A DNA stretch of 11,350 nt, taken from Candidatus Heimdallarchaeota archaeon. Its GTDB lineage: Archaea; Asgardarchaeota; Heimdallarchaeia; Hodarchaeales; Hodarchaeaceae. Below, in pieces: positions 1 through 9,399 of the stretch. How positions within the stretch are numbered: the stretch's first letter is position 1; each line of letters opens with the position of its first letter. The DNA is taken from the NCBI GenBank assembly GCA_019057635.1, contig DXJL01000203.1:1-11350 (forward strand), in the 5' to 3' direction. Both the position numbers and the translations under genes were made by a program. The notes beneath the pieces were generated by a model that worked only from the letters and a program-made list of their open reading frames with translations, made no database searches and was not told the origin of the DNA.

Positions 1-87
1 AAGATGACTGTTTATCCAAATGATACGATCGCAGAAATGGGAATCAAGGATGAATACCCTCTGGTTGTACCACTTCCATCCAAGTAA
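1..87 (+). CDS. 3' end of an unknown protein truncated by the window edge (...KMTVYPNDTIAEMGIKDEYPLVVPLPSK*)
   Basis: Frame +1 is open from base 1 to TAA at 85-87 with protein-like composition. It converges on the CoA-transferase gene and is followed by a T-run at 139-145. Confidence 0.6.
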   Translation, partial: KMTVYPNDTIAEMGIKDEYPLVVPLPSK

Positions 88-143
88 AAATAGATGGAAT
101 AATCAGATACAATAAGTCAGCTAGAAGGATAGGATCAATTTTT

Positions 144-1292
144 TTATTCAGAATTATTCGTTCCTATTACTCCTTTTTTCATGAACCGTTCTATGTCTTC
201 ATTCATTCCGATTTCTTCTAAGATCTCTCTAGTATGTTCCCCTAAGCTAGGAGCAACTTGATAATCGCGTGATATTTTAGGATTAAGATATGGAGAAGAA
301 ATTAATTTAATTGCTCCCAATTCAGGATGATTTACCTCCGTCAATCTGTCTTTCTTTCGGAAAATAGGATCTAAAGTAAGAACCTCTCCTCCTGGAATAT
401 CAAATTTAACAAATAGGTTAGTCCACTCATCTGTTGTACGCAAGGAAAAGATTTTGGGGAGTTCCACCTCACATAATTCTAAATTATGTTGTTTGTCAAT
501 TAGATCAGAACGATCTACGGCATTACAAAAATTCTTCCAGAATTTACTTTCAATTGGAGCAAATGAAATGAATTTCTGATCCTTTGCTTGGTAAACACCA
601 TACCAAGGGATATAGCCTGAGAGAGCGTGCAAAGTTCTCTCAGGTTCTCCTAAACCTGCTATATATTCTGCCGCAACAACTGATAGCCATGGAAGAAGAT
701 GCTCAACCATTGAAATGTCAAAATATTGAGGTTCATCTTTCCGTTGGAGTAAGGCCCCTAAAACTGTGATCACGGTCGGTAAGCTTCCTCCACCTATATC
801 AGCAATGGGAACACCAGGGACAACAGGATAATTTTTTGGTCCTGTCAGATTCAAAATTCCAGCTTCCCCAATATAGTTCAAATCATGGCCTACTCGGTTA
901 TCTGTAGACCCATATCCAGTTAATTGGCAATATATTAATTTTGGGTTAATTTTGGAGAGGGCAGAATATTCTATTTTTAATTTTTTTACAGTTGAGGGTC
1001 TGAATCCGATTATCACAACATCACACGTTTCCACTAACTTGTAGAAGATTTCTAAACCCTCCTTTTGTTTTAAATCTAGGGTTATTGACCGTTTATTTCG
1101 ATTTAATAACAAATTTAATTGAGATTCGTGATCAACAAATGGTGGATAATGTCGAATTGGATCCCCAATTAAAGATTCAACTTTAATGACATCTGCACCA
1201 AAATCGCCTAAGATTTGTGAAGCTAGTGGCCCAGGAAGGTTAGTAGTTAAATCTAATATTCTAATTTCGTCGAGTACAGATCGTAGTGGCAT
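144..1292 (-). CDS. CaiB/BaiF family III CoA-transferase, alpha-methylacyl-CoA racemase-like
   Basis: 382 aa with family motifs RILDLT..LPGP, LGDFGADVIKVE, NRNKRSITLDLK, GFRP, INPKLIYCQLTGYG, GHDLNY, IADIGGG and APSLGEHTREILEEIG. Confidence 0.93.
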   Translation of the reverse strand: MPLRSVLDEIRILDLTTNLPGPLASQILGDFGADVIKVESLIGDPIRHYPPFVDHESQLNLLLNRNKRSITLDLKQKEGLEIFYKLVETCDVVIIGFRPSTVKKLKIEYSALSKINPKLIYCQLTGYGSTDNRVGHDLNYIGEAGILNLTGPKNYPVVPGVPIADIGGGSLPTVITVLGALLQRKDEPQYFDISMVEHLLPWLSVVAAEYIAGLGEPERTLHALSGYIPWYGVYQAKDQKFISFAPIESKFWKNFCNAVDRSDLIDKQHNLELCEVELPKIFSLRTTDEWTNLFVKFDIPGGEVLTLDPIFRKKDRLTEVNHPELGAIKLISSPYLNPKISRDYQVAPSLGEHTREILEEIGMNEDIERFMKKGVIGTNNSE

Positions 1293-1440: not shown

Positions 1441-3318
1441 TTACTTCCGTTTTCTTCTAATTATGGGGATAGAAATGAATATCGCCAACAAGAAGGTTGC
1501 AATTTCAAATCCAGGGGTTCCATCGTCTTCTGTGGTTGTGGTTGTGGTAGTTTCGGTTGTAGTAGTTACTTTGTAGTAACCTGGTACTTCACGAACGCCA
1601 TCATCATCGGTGTCGATGTATCCTGCATTTTCTAGCATCAGTTTAGCTTTCGCTACATCCAGATCGTAATGTTCAATGTTTGGATTATTATATCCAGCAA
1701 AGAATACAGAAGGAATAACGGAATCAGTGACTGTTGCATAGTCACCAAAAGCAAATTGTGCAATGGCTTGTGGATCTATTGCATAGGCGATTGCTTTTCG
1801 TACGATTGGATCATCTAGAGGTTTCACTGCAAAGTTAAGTTGCATATAATAGTCCCATTGAGAAACTGCTTCATTAACACACTTGATATTCGGATAGGTA
1901 TTACCTGGACCGACAGCATCGATTAATTCAGTAGACATGGTTTCATATCTCTCTGAATCATAGAGACCAGTATTCATTCCCAAGATTCGATTCATCTCGG
2001 TTCCTTCAACTTCGATTGTGAAATTCTCGATTTTGGGGTATACTCCGGCAGCTATGGGGTTGCTACTTGAGTATTGTGGCATTCCTGCTCCACCAGTGTA
2101 CCAATAACTGTCATATTTTTCGAAAATGTGGAAACCAGATGAACCTCGTAAGCCATACATATAAACGAATGGACCTGTACCGACATGAGCATCCCAGTCT
2201 GCGGGGTCTTGCCATCGAGCGTCTGTAATGTTAGCACCTGCCCAAATGTGTTCAGGCAGAATACTTATGGAACCTATGTCATCAACAGCCCAAGCGTAGG
2301 GTTCCGTCAAATTGATCATGATAGTTTGACCATCAATCGCAACTGTATCAATTTTCTCGACACTTGAATAGGATGGAGTTAGAGTTCCATTTGCTACTGT
2401 AAAGTCTAGAGTAAATTTGACATCATCGGGATTTAAAGCTTCACCATCGTGCCATGTAACACCAGTTCGTAATGTGAAATTGAGGTGCATTCCATCAGCT
2501 GATTGGCTCCAGCTCTCTGCTAACCAAGGAACCTTTTGGAGGGACTCATTATAAGCAATGAGGTTATCATAATGCAGATTTGCTGCAAAGCCAGAACGTG
2601 CATCTGTGTAAAGGAAGGGATTCAGATGGGTCACATCACTGGGATAAGCCATGTCGAATTTTGTGTCACCACTCATATTCATAATGCTCCATGGGTTGAA
2701 ACCAGTAAATATTCCTCCAGGCATTGGTGAATAGCCAACCCATTCTTGTCTAATGAAGTGAGCATCGTTTGTCAAGAAGAGTGGAATATAAGGTAATAAA
2801 TCGGCCATTAAGACCTGTGCTTCGAATAAAGCTGCTTTCAGCTCGATTGGATTTGTAGCACTTTGACTGTCTTCTAATACAGCATCAAGAGTATCATTGA
2901 ACATAAATGCAAGGTTATCACCCCAAGGATAATCTTGAGAAGAATGGCCTCGGAAATAAACATGATTGGGGATCGGTGAATAACCACCTGCCATTTCATA
3001 CATTTCATAATCTCGATAATCGTTTACTACTGCACCTGCGGGACCATCAAGACGTCCCTTTTCATAAATCTGTGGATAGAATACAGAATCATCTAATTGA
3101 GTGACGATTACTTCCACTCCTATTTCTGCACACGCTTCCTTTATTCCTAAACCAGCATCTACGGAGATCGTATCCCAGTCTAATACTAAGAGCTCAAAAG
3201 AAAGCTCTTCTTTTTGGGGTTGTTGAGAAACTGAACCCATAACTGGAGAGGAGAGACTAGTTATGAAAAGGATAACGAATGCTAATCCTATTAAAGAGAA
3301 AGTTGTACTTTTTTTCAT
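1441..3318 (-). CDS. ABC transporter substrate-binding protein, family 5 (OppA/DppA-like), circularly permuted, with Thr-rich linker and PGF-CTERM-like anchor
   Basis: N-terminal signal peptide; motifs LNPF, PWLAESW, FTLRTGVTWHDG..DDVKFT, VGTGPF, PLDDPIVRKAIAYAID and AKAKLMLENAGY; C-terminus TTTTETTTTTTTEDDGTPGFE + hydrophobic segment + RRKRK; AGGTGA Shine-Dalgarno at 3330-3325. Confidence 0.93.
   Translation of the reverse strand: MKKSTTFSLIGLAFVILFITSLSSPVMGSVSQQPQKEELSFELLVLDWDTISVDAGLGIKEACAEIGVEVIVTQLDDSVFYPQIYEKGRLDGPAGAVVNDYRDYEMYEMAGGYSPIPNHVYFRGHSSQDYPWGDNLAFMFNDTLDAVLEDSQSATNPIELKAALFEAQVLMADLLPYIPLFLTNDAHFIRQEWVGYSPMPGGIFTGFNPWSIMNMSGDTKFDMAYPSDVTHLNPFLYTDARSGFAANLHYDNLIAYNESLQKVPWLAESWSQSADGMHLNFTLRTGVTWHDGEALNPDDVKFTLDFTVANGTLTPSYSSVEKIDTVAIDGQTIMINLTEPYAWAVDDIGSISILPEHIWAGANITDARWQDPADWDAHVGTGPFVYMYGLRGSSGFHIFEKYDSYWYTGGAGMPQYSSSNPIAAGVYPKIENFTIEVEGTEMNRILGMNTGLYDSERYETMSTELIDAVGPGNTYPNIKCVNEAVSQWDYYMQLNFAVKPLDDPIVRKAIAYAIDPQAIAQFAFGDYATVTDSVIPSVFFAGYNNPNIEHYDLDVAKAKLMLENAGYIDTDDDGVREVPGYYKVTTTTETTTTTTTEDDGTPGFEIATFLLAIFISIPIIRRKRK
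1531..1566 (-). repeat. Low-complexity ACN-codon repeat encoding a poly-Thr linker
   Basis: ACT ACT ACA ACC GAA ACT ACC ACA ACC ACA ACC ACA encodes TTTTETTTTTTT. Confidence 0.8.
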
Positions 3319-3324
3319 TCTTTT

Positions 3325-3330
3325 TCACCT
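3325..3330 (-). promoter_or_regulatory. Shine-Dalgarno site (AGGTGA) of the substrate-binding protein gene
   Basis: AGGTGA lies 6 nt upstream of the ATG at 3318. Confidence 0.8.
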
Positions 3331-3495
3331 ATTGGTAAAAGCTAACACGCGTAATCTGAGAAAAATTCCTTCTAATATAAAATGTAAAATTTTACTTGGA
3401 ACTTAGCCAGATTTCGAACACCGTAATTTTGTTTAATAAGCTTTCTTTCTACGCAAATCTTGGTGAAGAATATTCGTATAGAATAAGTAAATGGT

Positions 3496-3536
3496 AAAAA
3501 AAAAGAATTTTTATCATTTAATATATGTAAAAAGGA
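3496..3536 (-). terminator. Putative oligo-U terminator after the permease-ATPase-accessory genes
   Basis: The minus strand has U5 (near 3533-3529) and U9 (3504-3496) tracts just downstream of the stop at 3549. Confidence 0.5.
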
Positions 3537-3548
3537 TAAATTTCACGA

Positions 3549-4619
3549 TTAGTCACAGCTAACGTAGCTTGCACCATATCGTGCTTCGAGCTCTGCTGCT
3601 TTCTTGGCACGTCTCACATGCTTTTTCCAGGAATAAATTGTGATAGCTATCGCTAAGATGGTAAAAAAGAGGATGTAAAGCGGCCACGCAAAGAAGACTA
3701 GTGGATTGTCATATTGATAGGGATTGTAGAGATCAAACGTTTGGACTTTTACGCTGTACTCTTTTGTGTCAAAAAAGTCTGAACTGATGAACAGATAAAC
3801 TCTGGAATGATCCGTGGCTGCAGGCGTAATACACAGAACATTGATTTCGAATAGAATATGACTATTTCCTGGAAAGAGATTCAGGGAGGGGAAAGAGTCT
3901 GATGATAAAGAAACATTTTCTATCATTTTTCCACTAATATTTCCACGTAATACCGTTGAAGTAAGTTCAAGTACATTTTCATCTACCTCTACTCGGAATG
4001 TTAAATTCCTTAAGGCGGCTACTCCTTCGTTAGATATGTTATAAGTTAATGTTTGCTCCTGATTATTGAGGAGTGAAATCCGTGGAACCACAAAGCCTTC
4101 AATTTCAAGTGGGCTGCTATCTACCTTGAGGATTGGAAATTGAACCGTCATCGATCCTATCCCGTATTGTAATGTATATACCTGCCCTTCCACCAGAGTG
4201 TCTATATCTAATCGGACTCCATCTTTGTGTAAATATACTTTATACAAAACTATTGGGTTGGTTAGAAAAGTTTGAGATCCTGTTATAATGAAACTAGTAT
4301 TTTTCTCTTCTAGCTGATTGAAATCTCCAAGATCATGAACAGCTACTTCTTCCTCCGCAAAGAAGAGACCTTTTTCTAAGGTTATATTAATAGACAGATT
4401 CTGATGATTTAAATTTGATATTTCTCTTACTTCAATGGTAATATTAACTTCCTCCCAGTATTCCATTTCGCTTGGCGTTATTATTTGTAGAAAGAAATCT
4501 GCCCCAGCCTGCGAGGATTGGGGGATATTCATCTGACCATCTATGGCATGAAAATTAAATATCATTCCGAGAAATAAACATACTAGAATAACATGTTTAA
4601 CCTTCTTATTGAATTTCAT
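3549..4619 (-). CDS. Uncharacterised type I membrane surface protein with two putative Ig-like (DUF11/CARDB-like) beta-sandwich domains
   Basis: Start moved from 4634 to the ATG at 4619, which forms a TAATG overlap with the upstream ATPase stop and begins a signal peptide (MKFNKKVKHVILVCLFLGMIF...). Beta-strand patterned ectodomain (VNITIEV, LTYNISNEGVAALRNLTFRV), C-terminal TM helix (PLVFFAWPLYILFFTILAIAITIYSW) and basic tail. The domain assignment is by eye. Confidence 0.8.
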   Translation of the reverse strand: MKFNKKVKHVILVCLFLGMIFNFHAIDGQMNIPQSSQAGADFFLQIITPSEMEYWEEVNITIEVREISNLNHQNLSINITLEKGLFFAEEEVAVHDLGDFNQLEEKNTSFIITGSQTFLTNPIVLYKVYLHKDGVRLDIDTLVEGQVYTLQYGIGSMTVQFPILKVDSSPLEIEGFVVPRISLLNNQEQTLTYNISNEGVAALRNLTFRVEVDENVLELTSTVLRGNISGKMIENVSLSSDSFPSLNLFPGNSHILFEINVLCITPAATDHSRVYLFISSDFFDTKEYSVKVQTFDLYNPYQYDNPLVFFAWPLYILFFTILAIAITIYSWKKHVRRAKKAAELEARYGASYVSCD

Positions 4620-5605
4620 TAATCTAACCAACATGCTGAGTACCTTCCATCTTTCATCATGAGCTCTGGTTCTTCTTCAATACATTTTTCAAATTGAAAG
4701 GGGCAACGAGGAGCAAATCTGCATCCTGGAGGTAAATTAATTGCAGTGGGGATTTCCCCCTCAATTTCTATCCTTTCTCGTTTAGCATCAGGATCTGGTA
4801 CAGGGATGTTTGAAATCAAAGCTTTTGAATATGGGTGGTGCGGGTTTTGTATAACTTGGTCAATGTTTCCCTTTTCCACAATTTTTCCCAAGTATAAAAT
4901 TATGATGCGATGCCCCAAATATCTAGCTTGGGCTAAATCATGCGTAATGAACAAAATACCCATATTGTAGGCTGCTTGTAAATCTTGAAGCAGATTTAAA
5001 ATTTCTATCCTTGTATTTGCGTCAAGCATGCTAGCAGGTTCGTCAGCAATAATAAATTCTGGGCCCAATACTAACGCACGAGCAATAGATACTCTTTGTC
5101 GTTGGCCGCCTGATAATTCATGAGGGAACCTTATACTGAATTCTGAGACAGGAATCAATCCCACGTCTTCCAATGCTTTAGCTACTCGTTTATGAGTTTC
5201 CGATTTTGGAAAAACATTTGTAACTTGCAGAGGTTCTGAAATCACATCATAGATGGTCATTCTTGGATCCAAAGATTCATAGGGATTCTGAAAAATCATT
5301 TGCATGTGTCTGCGTAATTTTCGTATCTTCCGTTCTTTTGCTTTTGCTATGTCTTTTCCCTTGTAAATGATTTCTCCACCAGTTGGATCTTCCAATCTAA
5401 GTAATAATCTCGCAGCAGTAGTTTTTCCTGACCCACTTTCACCGACTAGACAGACTACCTCACCCTGCTTTATTTCAAAAGAAATATCATCGACAGCTCT
5501 TACATATTCTCGTCTTCCACGAATTCCGTCTAGCAAACCAGTTCGTGTCGGAAACCATTTTCTGAGATCCTTGATTGTAAATAGAATTTTTGTAGTAGAA
5601 CTCAT
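4619..5605 (-). CDS. oppF: Oligopeptide/dipeptide ABC transporter ATP-binding subunit (OppF/DppF-like)
   Basis: Walker A GESGSGKT, signature LSGGQRQR, Walker B IIADEP, FITHDL, HPY and Cys motif CRFAPRC..C..C. Start placed at the ATG at 5605 (ATGA overlap with the oppD stop, GGAG upstream) rather than 5632. Confidence 0.93.
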   Translation of the reverse strand: MSSTTKILFTIKDLRKWFPTRTGLLDGIRGRREYVRAVDDISFEIKQGEVVCLVGESGSGKTTAARLLLRLEDPTGGEIIYKGKDIAKAKERKIRKLRRHMQMIFQNPYESLDPRMTIYDVISEPLQVTNVFPKSETHKRVAKALEDVGLIPVSEFSIRFPHELSGGQRQRVSIARALVLGPEFIIADEPASMLDANTRIEILNLLQDLQAAYNMGILFITHDLAQARYLGHRIIILYLGKIVEKGNIDQVIQNPHHPYSKALISNIPVPDPDAKRERIEIEGEIPTAINLPPGCRFAPRCPFQFEKCIEEEPELMMKDGRYSACWLD

Positions 5606-6588
5606 AAAATCGTCTCTCCTGCATGAAAACATGCAACGTGATGTCTAGATGAAGAAAAAGACTCAAATGGAGGGATATCTTCCCTACATTCTTTTGATGC
5701 CAATGGACACCGAGGATGAAAACGACAACCTGGTGGTGGATTTGCTAAATCGGGGGGAATTCCAGATATCGGTTCAATGCGTTTGCACTCACCCAATATA
5801 CTTGGGAATGATCGAATTAACATTCTTGTGTAGGGATGAGCACCTTTATGGAATACCGTAGAAGCATCTCCGACTTCAACCATCTTTCCAGCATACATGA
5901 TTGCAACATCATCACATGACTCAGCAATTACACTTAAATCATGGGTTATAAACATGATTCCAAGATTATAATTGGATTGAATTTCTTTTAAAAGCTTTAG
6001 AATCTTTTTTTCCACAATTACATCTAATGCAGTAACAGGTTCGTCTGCTATAAGCAGCTTTGGATCACAAGCCATTGCCATAGCTATTATTGCTCTTTGT
6101 TTCATGCCACCAGAAAATTCATGGGGATAGTTTTTAATTCGGTCGGGATCCAATCCAACGATTTCAAATGATTCTTTGACTTTTTTCCAAGCTTCCTTTT
6201 TTACTGATTTTGATTTTGAATTTTCTTTCTCAATAATTACTTCTGCGATTTGTTCTCCCACAGTCATCACAGGATTAAAAGCATTCATTGCATATTGAAA
6301 AACATAGGAAAGTTCTTTCCATTTGGCTTGCCTCATTTCTTCCTTTGATTTCTTTAGAAGATCAACACCATCTAAAAAAATCTCTCCATTTACAATTTTT
6401 CCAGCTGGAGGAAGCATTCGCATAATAGACAAGGCTGTTGTTGTCTTCCCACAACCACTTTCGCCAGCCACTCCCAGAGTTTTCCCTTGAGCAATAGTAA
6501 AACAAACATCATCAACCGCCCTCACACGTGATTCTTTCAGGAAAAAATGAGTGCTTAGATTCTTTACTTCAAGTAAAACCATAATCAT
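5602..6588 (-). CDS. oppD: Oligopeptide/dipeptide ABC transporter ATP-binding subunit (OppD/DppD-like)
   Basis: GESGCGKT, YPHEFSGGMKQR, LLIADEP, FITHDL, HPYT and PPGCRFHPRC...C...VAC. TAATG overlap with the oppC stop; an alternative ATG lies at 6582. Confidence 0.95.
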   Translation of the reverse strand: MIMVLLEVKNLSTHFFLKESRVRAVDDVCFTIAQGKTLGVAGESGCGKTTTALSIMRMLPPAGKIVNGEIFLDGVDLLKKSKEEMRQAKWKELSYVFQYAMNAFNPVMTVGEQIAEVIIEKENSKSKSVKKEAWKKVKESFEIVGLDPDRIKNYPHEFSGGMKQRAIIAMAMACDPKLLIADEPVTALDVIVEKKILKLLKEIQSNYNLGIMFITHDLSVIAESCDDVAIMYAGKMVEVGDASTVFHKGAHPYTRMLIRSFPSILGECKRIEPISGIPPDLANPPPGCRFHPRCPLASKECREDIPPFESFSSSRHHVACFHAGETIL

Positions 6589-7502
6589 TACCTTTCTCTT
6601 AATCGGGGGTTTAGAACTTCATTTAGACTGAAACTGATCAATGAAAAACCAAGCGCTAGAAGCATGATACTTATTCCAGGAGGAATAAAATGCCACCACG
6701 CCCCTAGAAGTATAGCATTTTCTCTTCCAGCCTCATAGAGAACTCTACCCCATGACCAAGATCCAACAACTCCAAAACCTAAGAAGCTCAGACCCGCTTC
6801 TGCGATTATTGAATTTACAACTCCTAAAATAGCGTTAGCAAATATTAATGGGAACACATTTGGTAAAATGTGGCTTGAAATGATATGTCTATTTCCTGCA
6901 CCTACAGATTTTGATGCTTCTACAAATGCTCTCTGTTTGATGGAAAGAGTTTCAGAACGTACGATTCTAGCTGTTCCAGTCCATCCAAGTAGACCAATTA
7001 TTAATATTAGATTTTCCATTCCTCCACCAAAGAGTGATACAACTACGAGCATCAATGGTAATGCAGGAAGCTGAATGAAAAAGTCTGTGATCCGCATAAG
7101 TATTATATCTATCCACCCTCCATAATAACCAGAGATTAACCCAAATAATGTACCAATGAATAATGAGATGAACGCTGCTGATAAGCCTATTAATAAAGAT
7201 ATTTGGGCACCGTAGATCATTTGACTAAATATATCTCTCCCCAGACGATCAGTTCCAAGAGGATGTGAGGCTGAGGGATTGTCACTGCGCTCGCCTACCA
7301 TTGTTTTATTAGGATCATAAGGAGCCAAAATAGGAGCAAATACCCCCATCGTAACAAACAGAAGAACAAGAAACATACCAATCATTCCAAAAGGACTATC
7401 TGTATATAGGTGCCAAAATCGTGTAAAACGAATTTTATACCTTTTGAAGATAGAGGGAGTTGAATACTTCCCAGAACCATTGTTTACAGTACTAATTGTC
7501 AT
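6588..7502 (-). CDS. oppC: Oligopeptide/dipeptide ABC transporter permease (OppC/DppC-like)
   Basis: APILAPYDP, HPLGTDRLGRDIFSQMIYGA, EAA-loop region FVEASKSVGA..HILPN, EAGLSFLG and LNPR; multiple TM segments. Confidence 0.95.
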   Translation of the reverse strand: MTISTVNNGSGKYSTPSIFKRYKIRFTRFWHLYTDSPFGMIGMFLVLLFVTMGVFAPILAPYDPNKTMVGERSDNPSASHPLGTDRLGRDIFSQMIYGAQISLLIGLSAAFISLFIGTLFGLISGYYGGWIDIILMRITDFFIQLPALPLMLVVVSLFGGGMENLILIIGLLGWTGTARIVRSETLSIKQRAFVEASKSVGAGNRHIISSHILPNVFPLIFANAILGVVNSIIAEAGLSFLGFGVVGSWSWGRVLYEAGRENAILLGAWWHFIPPGISIMLLALGFSLISFSLNEVLNPRLRER

Positions 7503-7511
7503 TCTTATACC

Positions 7512-8537
7512 TCAGTAGCGAATTCGGGGATCTAAATATGCATAAATTATATCTGCAATAAAACTTGACACGATTGCGACAGCTGCGACAAGTAAGAATA
7601 ACCCTTGAAGTAATGGGTAGTCTGAATATGTAACTGCGTCAAATGTTAGTAGACCCAATCCATCCCAAGAAAATACAGTTTCAGTTAGGGTTGCACCGGA
7701 AACAAGATAAGTCATTGCCATCGCCAACACAGATATCATAGGTAACATGGCATTTTTTCGGGCGTGGGTAAAGAGAACTCTTCTTTCCTTTAATCCCTTA
7801 GCACGCGCAGTAGTTATGTAATCTTCGAGAAATATCCCAAGCATTTGATCCCGGGCAATTAAGAACCACGCCCCAACAAAGCTTATAGTTAACGTAGTTA
7901 CAGGACCGATTAAATGATAACAATAATCTATCGCCCAAGCGAAAATATCGGCATATTTAGGATCTTCAATTCGGGGAGATCCTGACAATGGTATGAGGTG
8001 GAATTGACCAAAGAAATAAAAAATAATTAGCATACCAAGCCAGAAAACGGGGGTTGAATAACTTGTAAGGGTAACAAAAATTGAAACTAAGTCTGTTTTT
8101 GATTTGAATTTTGATGCAGCGATAGTACCAAAAATTATCGCTAGAATAAATGATAAAAGAATCGATATTCCCATCAGTAGAATGGTATTGAGTAGTCGAT
8201 GACCGAAAATTAGTTCAGATACCTCAGTTGGATAGTAGTAGAATGAGACACCTAAATCTCCTTCTAATAAACGCTGTATATATATAATGAATTGGTCAAA
8301 GATTGGTAAATTCGTACCATAACGTTCTTGTAGCACCTGACGGAATTCCGGTCTGACTTGTCCTGTTCTTCCCAAAACAGCAAGAGCAGGGTTTCCAGGC
8401 ATGACACGAAATAACACAAAATTGAATATTACAGTTAAAATTAGTAAAAATCCACTATCAAATGCTCTACGAGAGATATATCCTTTTAAACTCAATTTGT
8501 CCAACTCTTTCTTGCAAATTTTTAGTTTAGAGCTCAA
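7512..8537 (-). CDS. oppB: Oligopeptide/dipeptide ABC transporter permease (OppB/DppB-like)
   Basis: MPGNP, GDLGVSF, STPVFWLG, EDYITTARAKGL..HARKNAMLP, ETVFSWDGLG, DYPLLQG and YAYLDPRIRY. The start is uncertain: TTG at 8537 or TTG at 8495 (MSLKGYISRR). Confidence 0.93.
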   Translation of the reverse strand: MSSKLKICKKELDKLSLKGYISRRAFDSGFLLILTVIFNFVLFRVMPGNPALAVLGRTGQVRPEFRQVLQERYGTNLPIFDQFIIYIQRLLEGDLGVSFYYYPTEVSELIFGHRLLNTILLMGISILLSFILAIIFGTIAASKFKSKTDLVSIFVTLTSYSTPVFWLGMLIIFYFFGQFHLIPLSGSPRIEDPKYADIFAWAIDYCYHLIGPVTTLTISFVGAWFLIARDQMLGIFLEDYITTARAKGLKERRVLFTHARKNAMLPMISVLAMAMTYLVSGATLTETVFSWDGLGLLTFDAVTYSDYPLLQGLFLLVAAVAIVSSFIADIIYAYLDPRIRY

Positions 8538-8584
8538 ATAATTAATCTTTTATGCGTGAAGATATAGATAATTCTTGAATCGCA

Positions 8585-8602
8585 ATTTTATAAACTGGAG
8601 AA
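8585..8602 (-). promoter_or_regulatory. Candidate TATA box (TTTATAAA) for the ABC operon
   Basis: Palindromic TTTATAAA at 8587-8594, about 50 nt upstream of the first TTG. The AT-rich background lowers certainty. Confidence 0.35.
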
Positions 8603-8697
8603 TGCTTACAAGACAGGATAGCGATTCATTGATTGCTAAATTTTAATATTTAATTGCCTTATTAAGACTATAGATAAATGAAATCTATTAGGCAAAA

Positions 8698-9092
8698 TCA
8701 TCTCAACGTCTTCGATAATGAATCTGGTTCTAAAGTACTCCATTACCACAGAAATTTGCCGAAGTCAGTTTGACTTTCCCTGGAAGAGTAAGATTCATCC
8801 AGTGAAAAAATGTCATAGTCAGTATCACCAGGTTTTTCGATTACAGGAGTGCTATAATTCCTAGTATAAATAGAAATTCTATCATTAATCTCATCTATAC
8901 TTGAAATAAAAAAGATTTAATCCGTATCTAAATTGGTAGCATCCCAAATTTGCGAACCACAGTAATCTGTACATAAAACGGCGTAATCATAACGGGAGCC
9001 TTGAACAAATGCAAGGGTTGACTTACTTTGTGTCACTGGTGTCAAATTCACCAAATTAAGATTAACAGTAAAGCTGAGTACAATTTGCTCAT
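8698..9092 (-). pseudogene. Decayed gene for a secreted or surface protein (one frameshift plus in-frame stops)
   Basis: ATG 9092 gives MSKLYSALLLILI; a one-base shift near 9055 leads into LVNLTPVTQSKSTLAFVQGSRYDY...DTD*(8917)IFFISSIDEINDRISIYTRNYSTPVIEKPGDTDYDIFSLDESYSSRESQTDFGKFLW*(8743)WSTLEPDSLSKTLR*(8698), all in one frame. Confidence 0.55.
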
Positions 9093-9399
9093 AATCTTCT
9101 TTATGATGATAACAATTCCCTGACAATTACATAAATTTGTTTTTTCGAGAATAGATAATTCCACTTTGATTTTCTGGTTAACTTAGATTTTCACATAGGT
9201 GAGAAGCTTAAAAATCACAAATAAATAAGGTTGTTTGGAGTTGTTATAAAGGATGGATCGTTTTCCTTACAAATAAAAATTATTTGATCTATATTCTACT
9301 TATACAACGACAACCCTATGCTTTCCTTAATTTAAATCTTTTTTATAACTTATATTTACCATTAAAATCATTATATCAAGTACTGAATGTTGGTGTCTG

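Follow-up and report, generated by a model that had tools for sequence, protein, structure and literature searches.

The stretch of DNA analyzed here (the window; 11,350 nucleotides of contig DXJL01000203.1, assembly GCA_019057635.1, Candidatus Heimdallarchaeota archaeon) encodes a circularly permuted family-5 substrate-binding protein (SBP), in which the last third of the canonical chain precedes the first two thirds. The gene (P0001) lies at 1441..3318 on the reverse strand, as do all the features described within it, and its open reading frame (ORF) of 625 codons and a stop matches Pfam SBP_bac_5 (PF00496) at 189 bits. The translation begins with a predicted signal peptide (residues 1–28; 3235..3318), with a basic start, a hydrophobic core and a small-residue end. 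In the AlphaFold2 (AF2) model this region forms a helix at residues 3–20, followed by low confidence at 22–28. A similar leader is found in permuted as well as canonical relatives among the 120 closest proteins, and the sequence suggests that the leader of the window protein is cleaved. Block A follows (residues 37–215; 2674..3210) and corresponds, by BLASTP, profile and model, to the canonical C-terminal third, comprising the second half of the C-lobe and the last strand of domain I. The gap between the two BLAST blocks marks a linker (residues 216–220; 2659..2673) that leads from the former C terminus to the former N terminus. Block B (residues 221–580; 1579..2658) corresponds by BLASTP, PF00496 and model to the canonical N-terminal two thirds: the start of domain I, domain II, the rest of domain I, and the first half of the C-lobe. 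Between fold and anchor, a Thr-rich spacer (residues 581–599; 1522..1578) is evident in the translation and coincides with a drop to 51–64 in the predicted local distance difference test (pLDDT) score; that it is glycosylated is only a guess. The protein ends in a putative C-terminal sorting/anchor segment (residues 600–625; 1444..1521) consisting of a "PGF" motif, a hydrophobic helix (605–624 in the AF2 model) and a basic tail. This segment covers all 26 positions of the Heimdall-CTERM model NF045529 with 20.8 bits (E 3.5e-4; cut-off 24), and the model for PGF-CTERM-anchored SBPs (TIGR04281) gave 14.2 bits against a cut-off of 325. Signal peptide and putative C-terminal membrane anchor hold their usual chain positions despite the block swap, and canonical members of the same clade have a comparable anchor behind block A.

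The swapped order was evident in direct alignments. BLASTP comparison with a canonical relative (P0016, 581 amino acids) placed query residues 37–215 on subject 376–541 (44% identity, E 4e-42) and residues 221–580 on subject 37–372 (39% identity, E 2e-75); the two pieces abut in canonical proteins and do so in the query as well, in reverse order. The 120 closest proteins divided into 60 colinear with the query and 60 showing two swapped matches, with none of any other kind, and a swap recurring over 60 of 120 relatives is far beyond chance. When the PDB was searched by phmmer, residues ~222–580 matched the first 330–340 residues of NikA, NikZ and DppA, and residues 132–213 matched 499–583 of 2d5w_A. 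A profile of the permuted family, built from 92 permuted proteins (alignment A1), gave two stretches in swapped order on the solved AppA, DppA, NikZ-II and 5u4o structures. On 1xoc_A (AppA), profile positions 206–540 matched chain residues 21–354 and positions 34–195 matched 356–516 (i-E 3.3e-27); the corresponding stretches (profile 200s–530s and 30s–190s) fell on chain residues 24–367 and 385–526 of 8z1y_F (E. coli DppA), 9–330 and 333–481 of 8efz_A, and 42–359 and 365–513 of 5u4o_A. Three PDB searches, using the window protein, the permuted profile and a Mesorhizobium member, gave no sequence colinear across the junction among the 60 best of each. An earlier note, made by a model from the DNA letters alone, had recognized the pattern that normally ends OppA/DppA at residues ~38–215, their usual beginning only from about residue 217 (which falls at nucleotide 2670), and the end of the chain at the point where the displaced block would normally follow. 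These placements stood, as did the outcome it expected of an alignment to E. coli DppA, and the single colinear OppA/DppA alignment that would have spoken against it did not appear in the PDB searches. Its suggestion that PF00496 would hit twice in swapped order was not borne out: the family matched once, with residues 263–596 on profile positions 3–301 of 368 (189.3 bits; cut-off 32.4), and block A alone returned no Pfam family at E≤10 and no PDB match by phmmer at E≤0.01. The two-hit test is uninformative because the Pfam model extends only a short way into block A.

The sequences around the junctions locate the site at which the chain was reopened. In canonical relatives, the leader is followed by "F.MAYPSD..." at the start of block B, which ends "...AGY.D.D.DG.RE.PG"; block A comes directly next (".EL.F.M.VLSWD.ISVDAG...") and ends near "...PGG.FT..N....N.Y", before the spacer and anchor. 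In the window protein, "EELSFELLVLDWD..." comes after the leader; block A ends "...IMNM", "FDMAYPSD" starts five residues on, and the fold ends "...DGVREVPG", after which the spacer begins. The chain is therefore open between the loop ending "DGVREVPG" and the strand beginning "ELSFELL", which are contiguous in canonical relatives. Structure alignments place the break near residue 345 of mature E. coli DppA, which we take to lie within domain III (the C-lobe), the canonical termini being presumably in domain I. With the break inside the C-lobe, the tether would leave from the other lobe, and the alignment ranges indicate that both chain ends and the tether would emerge from the C-lobe, as opposed to domain I in canonical proteins. 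The arrangement after the leader would then be block A, a five-residue linker and block B, ending at a surface loop of the C-lobe from which the Thr-rich spacer would run to the C-terminal membrane anchor. The earlier note had proposed that the old termini were fused, that the chain was reopened at a surface loop and that the tether consequently attaches to a different lobe; the linker and the contiguity of the two loop motifs in canonical relatives agree with the first two proposals, and the position of the break, read from alignment ranges, agrees with the third.

Structure prediction led to the same assignment. The AF2 model of the whole protein, computed with alignment A1, had a mean pLDDT of 92.6 and a predicted template modeling score of 0.86, with values of 96–97 maintained over the junction, linker residues 216–220 included; linkers vary from ~5 to 10 residues between permuted clades. 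All of the best Foldseek matches were cluster C binding proteins, with ~360–400 aligned columns and template modeling (TM) scores of 0.45–0.57 relative to the target, a partial coverage of the kind to be expected of a sequential aligner applied to a permuted chain. The two blocks were compared separately. Using VIA-align, model residues 215–581 superposed on the first ~1–345/370 residues of cluster C chains (DppA, AppA and NikZ) with Z scores of 21–24, including 1..345 of 1dpp_A (DppA; Z 22.1), 29..373 of 5f1q_B and 27..388 of 3tcf_A. A separate model of residues 29–216 (pLDDT 91.3) superposed on 370..533 of 5f1q_B (Z 11.6, root-mean-square deviation 2.7, 158 residues aligned), and also on 388..546 of 6ofq_A and 376..539 of 3tcf_A, with block A matches spanning Z 11–12 overall. 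In the model, the protein has the three-domain fold of cluster C, and blocks A and B together cover one canonical chain exactly once in rotated order. The possibility that residues 37–215 are an unrelated N-terminal domain, which the earlier note had named as a result that would overturn its interpretation, was ruled out by the BLASTP, profile and fold matches to the canonical C-terminal third. Collectively, these results confirmed that the family-5 fold of the window protein is circularly permuted, and cleanly so.

A swapped order could in principle be an artefact, produced by mis-assembly or by a dead fusion joining the end of one binding-protein gene to the start of its neighbor. Tandem binding-protein genes do occur in relatives (L090), which makes such a fusion possible, and among the orthologs one (L063) is split by a TGA codon and another (L076) is cut at its start. 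However, the same open frame, with a leader in front and an anchor behind, recurs in many independent assemblies and sources; in all 20 fetched loci of the permuted type, A precedes B; dN/dS lies well under 1; and the predicted model is compact and stays highly confident over the junction. The assembly artefact was rejected on the recurrence across independent assemblies, the dN/dS values and the confident model, and we regard an artefact of either kind as extremely improbable. The dN/dS values come from same-genus orthologs and were 0.22 for a pair at 94% identity and 0.086 for a pair at 77% (dS 1.66, near saturation), more distant pairs being saturated; the permuted gene is under purifying selection. 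The closest relative, at 94% identity, is a hypothetical protein (P0002) from an independent Heimdallarchaeota assembly.

The permuted gene is the sole binding-protein gene of a complete DppBCDF-type operon, whose permease and ATPase genes lie upstream on the same (reverse) strand. These encode a DppB/OppB-type permease (7512..8537; BPD_transp_1 and BPD_transp_1_N), a DppC/OppC-type permease (6588..7502; BPD_transp_1 and OppC_N), a DppD/OppD-type ATPase (5602..6588; ABC_tran and oligo_HPY) and a DppF/OppF-type ATPase (4619..5632; ABC_tran and oligo_HPY). Between the ATPase genes and the binding-protein gene, 3549..4634 (reverse strand) encodes a 361-residue membrane protein that matches no Pfam family, with a hydrophobic segment at its N terminus and a membrane helix at its C terminus; its homologs (33–98% identity) adjoin the permuted gene in seven further loci, all in the same genus. 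Overlaps of 16, 31 and 1 nt between neighboring operon genes suggest translational coupling. Both ATPases carry four cysteines at their ends, in the oligo_HPY region, in a C..C..C...C pattern that resembles the [4Fe-4S] sites reported for E. coli DppD and DppF (PMC12136057). An AT-rich spacer (8538–9399; GC about 0.31–0.33) with no ORF of 80 or more residues separates the operon from a divergent prolyl-tRNA synthetase gene and is probably a shared promoter region. The genome contains another PF00496 gene (L001, G000:C128, 91–3312, reverse strand), which is in canonical order (profile 1–364) within a 1074-residue open frame and whose product shares only ~26% identity with the window protein across 136 residues.

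The protein would be exported by Sec, anchored at its C terminus, capture its ligand between the lobes by a Venus-flytrap movement and deliver it to the permeases. No substrate is assignable because the specific NCBIfam equivalog models were all far below their cut-offs (Opp4A NF045467, 117.9/650; NikA TIGR02294, 99.4/393; GsiB NF011942, 95.6/594; DppA NF043070, 51.6/1005; OppA NF011684, 16.2/947). In DppA, R383 and D436 clamp the dipeptide, according to the structural report (PMC12136057). The corresponding positions belong to block A or to the residues immediately ahead of it, and the permuted profile lacks an acidic consensus at the D436 column, so the ligand may differ from that of DppA. 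A different role was considered in which the fold is kept and the protein mainly has another task at the cell surface, for instance as input to a chemoreceptor or as an abundant surface glycoprotein, instead of feeding the adjacent transporter. The main N-glycosylated protein of Promethearchaeum syntrophicum is a family-5 binding protein with a helix at either terminus, and the study describing it discusses a role in chemoreception or oligopeptide transport (PMC11284389). The window protein likewise has a Thr-rich spacer and several N-x-S/T sites, and in its genus an unknown membrane protein is encoded between transporter and binding protein. Against this stands the position of the gene, as the only binding-protein gene in a complete operon here and directly preceding DppB elsewhere: in other lineages the permuted gene lies immediately before DppB-DppC-DppD-DppF (L092), as the canonical gene does (L093). 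A main role away from the transporter is therefore considered improbable. Very probably, the window protein is a working binding protein of the adjacent Dpp/Opp-type importer that has the normal cluster C fold on a permuted chain, and block order has most likely changed several times within the family.

The permuted order is not confined to the source organism. A profile search of 400 genomes from the same phylum, in which 160 had a match at E≤1e-20 and up to three candidates per genome were scored, gave 21 end-to-end matches to the permuted profile, spread over 20 genomes of which the window's own is one, and a further match cut by a contig end. Among fetched loci, the end-to-end type always read A then B (20/20) and the split type always read B then A (10/10). 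In one ortholog (L063; G062:C82, 1498–3426), an in-frame TGA splits block A, leaving ORFs of 176 and 466 amino acids, and could reflect a pseudogene, a sequencing error or recoding; the same genome has an intact second copy on C201. Another ortholog (L076; G092:C284) lacks its start. A broader phmmer search over 1.84 billion representatives returned 29,631 proteins at E≤0.001, and the best 150 were classified by separate hidden Markov models (HMMs) of A and B. Of these, 74 had the canonical order B-A, 56 the order A-B of the query, 10 the order B-A-B and 2 the order B-A-B-A (fused doubles), with 6 containing B only (fragments) and 2 being giant multi-unit proteins; these fractions are not population estimates because the lists are centered on a permuted query. 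An A-B ORF was present in 35 of 66 loci from named species genomes, distributed over Chloroflexota (18), Alphaproteobacteria (13; Mesorhizobium, Nitratireductor, Chelativorans, Hoeflea, Roseomonas and others), and Clostridia, Desulfobacteria, Thermoproteota and Halobacteria (1 each), and the order was also found in 24 of 57 metagenome loci. A metagenome scan with the permuted protein P0035 found its own 3-kb contig as the sole close relative. The earlier note had suspected that the arrangement is under-described and not unique, and the survey supported this, the order proving common among Asgard archaea, Thermoproteota, a haloarchaeon, Alphaproteobacteria and Chloroflexota.

The bacterial A-B proteins have a Sec or Tat leader, lack a C-terminal anchor and end a few residues past the "...AGY...YP" loop; a lipobox is present in the Halobellus protein. 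With the anchor missing from the alphaproteobacterial and Chloroflexota members, relocation of the C-terminal tether is not sufficient to explain the permutation. As a general means of moving the C-terminal anchor, permutation was ruled out by these anchor-free members, which have the same break loop. The B-A-B proteins are permuted in a second way, with the cut close to HMM position 200 of block B, and consist of the second half of block B, block A and the first half of block B (P0141, P0160, P0166, P0168, P0184, P0193, P0199, P0209, P0213 and P0231); this order was also found at one Hyphomicrobiales locus (L150, 7047–8666). Many relatives of the Thermoproteota type (~750–790 amino acids; P0019, P0027–P0063 and others), in either order, carry a C-terminal extension of ~200 residues between the binding fold and the membrane helix, made up of two similar repeats (57–67% identical in P0035 and P0053).

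The history of the two orders was examined after aligning blocks A and B separately in a common order. This retained 245 of 267 proteins; the 22 that were dropped were fragments, multi-unit proteins, or sequences with fewer than 300 positions of B or fewer than 120 of A. A FastTree phylogeny of the 245 cores gave 15 changes among three orders, and an IQ-TREE phylogeny of 56 rows for the archaeal clades gave 8, of which at least 4 were forced by well-supported branches. Grouping all 26 permuted rows as one clade was rejected by the approximately unbiased test (delta lnL 678, p 8.5e-58), and rooting on three canonical rows placed canonical sequences nested among permuted ones and permuted sequences nested again among canonical ones. 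Close pairs of opposite order were also found. Compared block by block, permuted P0035, P0047, P0019 and P0041 share 76–88% identity with canonical P0053, P0054 and P0062 (81–88% for some pairs), and the identity extends over the leader and the 200-residue C-terminal extension where these were aligned; the four permuted proteins are ~37–40% identical to the window protein. In a Thermoproteota assembly (G400), the permuted gene is followed by a DppB gene 80% identical to the one behind the canonical gene in assembly G674, and that canonical gene is 76% identical to P0053. The G674 gene (L196; G674:C34, 8522–10855, reverse strand) contains one in-frame TAG that leaves ORFs of 449 and 328 amino acids and could be a pseudogene mutation, an error or a read-through codon. 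A family-level search around G400 found G400 alone.

On the evidence of these trees and pairs, the block order has probably changed repeatedly in family-5 binding proteins. The changes would most likely have occurred several times, in both directions and always at the same loop, and the most likely origin is the classical route in which tandem genes fuse in frame to a double that is then trimmed at both ends. Candidates for the starting material occur among relatives. Tandem canonical family-5 genes lie at 1239–2996 and 3114–4877 of one contig (L090; G376:C244), 118 nt apart and 69% identical, and fused B-A-B-A doubles are represented by P0150 (1016 amino acids, in a cluster of 26 with two named members from Methanophagales) and P0246 (1106 amino acids). 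The doubles contain two complete family-5 units and have the form of the intermediate demanded by the duplication-and-trimming model; the window protein, by comparison, has a single copy of each block and nothing duplicated beyond the shared break point. Giant multi-unit family-5 proteins are also present (P0146, 2427 amino acids; P0212, 4308 amino acids).

Alternatively, a single ancient permutation could have been followed by block-by-block homogenization of co-resident permuted and canonical paralogs through gene conversion. Both orders do reside together in one genome in G375 (L092 permuted and L091 canonical), and likewise in G373 and G376, and the one cut loop shared by all permuted clades, the bacterial ones included, is simple under a single origin. 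However, the co-resident pair in G375 is merely 49–56% identical and gives no sign of ongoing homogenization, and the identity between P0035 and P0053 is fairly even (66–100% per 30-residue window), with the leader and C-terminal extension included. In G400 (1.4 Mb, probably incomplete), the permuted copy alone was found among 10 candidates scored, and the 80% identity of the DppB genes beside the permuted and canonical genes is that expected of one operon lineage. The junction linkers also vary in length and sequence between clades. These points against gene conversion are not conclusive, and on balance a single origin with later homogenization is considered unlikely.

Several considerations weigh against the interpretation of a working, repeatedly permuted binding protein. 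Repeated change is read from sequence trees, which gene conversion between co-resident paralogs could mimic; the 56 IQ-TREE rows were selected after inspection of the FastTree phylogeny; and the direction of change (gain versus reversal) is not established because the root was not inferred. The upstream flanks of the G400 and G674 genes are dissimilar, and the G674 gene has its internal TAG. As for the protein itself, Pfam alone yields no second PF00496 match, the anchor motif is visible while scoring below the NF045529 cut-off, and the geometry of the chain ends was deduced from alignment ranges with the blocks superposed separately. Family-5 ligands are diverse (peptide, nickel, opine and oligosaccharide), and the equivalog models were all below their cut-offs.

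Cluster C binding proteins are among the best-studied components of ABC transporters and are common biosensor scaffolds. The canonical members (E. coli DppA, 1DPP/8Z1Y; B. subtilis AppA, 1XOC; C. jejuni NikZ, 4OET; and E. coli OppA, 3TCF) share with the window protein the fold, the sequence family PF00496 and DppBCDF-type partners, and differ from it in chain order, as the window protein leads with roughly their last third. The swapped order is a variant feature, and the window protein stays within the homologous SBP_bac_5 family. Its leader, Thr-rich spacer, "PGF" motif, hydrophobic helix and basic tail resemble those of archaeal C-terminally anchored proteins (PGF-CTERM-anchored SBPs, TIGR04281, and Heimdall-CTERM surface proteins, NF045529); unlike in those proteins, the anchor follows a C-lobe loop, and the segment scores below both cut-offs. 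GlnPQ-type importers offer another example of fused binding domains. A natural permutation of an ABC-transporter binding protein has a precedent in TpMglB-2 (Tp0684) of Treponema pallidum, a circularly permuted cluster B glucose-binding protein that retains ligand binding, occurs in this form in several bacterial groups and founded "Cluster Bc," and for which a link between permutation and membrane tethering was raised by the authors (PMC4990184). The likeness is one of principle only. TpMglB-2 has a type I, MglB-like two-domain cluster B fold, another break point and an unrelated sequence, whereas all listed fold and sequence matches of the window protein are to cluster C, which places it outside "Cluster Bc." Neither repeated change of order nor fused intermediates are reported in the accessible part of the TpMglB-2 study (PMC4990184). 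In a full-text literature search, which did not cover subscription-only papers, no permuted family-5 or cluster C binding protein was found described. The sole text found to pair circular permutation with the Pfam name (PMC2588589) is reportedly a general study of domain versatility. The rotated cluster C form is widespread and apparently without a description in print; the searches returned no solved structure for it, and in evolution it seems labile. Because domain models match permuted proteins only in part, annotation can overlook the N-terminal block.

For the source archaeon, the gene is an ordinary Dpp/Opp-type binding protein. For the family, all solved structures returned show one chain order, and a widespread second order shows that the fold tolerates termini on the other lobe. 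The natural permutants, the fused doubles and the pairs that are nearly identical but opposite in order offer a test of how permutations originate and of their effects on folding, tethering and permease docking, and the break loop suggests itself as a proven position at which to engineer permutations or insert domains. With roughly even confidence, we propose that family-5 proteins form a natural and still active permutation series, in which the same surface loop has been repeatedly opened and closed, in bacteria as in archaea, by way of tandem genes and fused doubles of which examples survive, with some of the flips being recent (pairs ~85% identical that head seemingly orthologous operons). 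If this is true, selection would act on which lobe bears the chain ends, through the tether, the leader or docking geometry, and not on the fold, and the recent pairs would provide ready before-and-after material for experiments.

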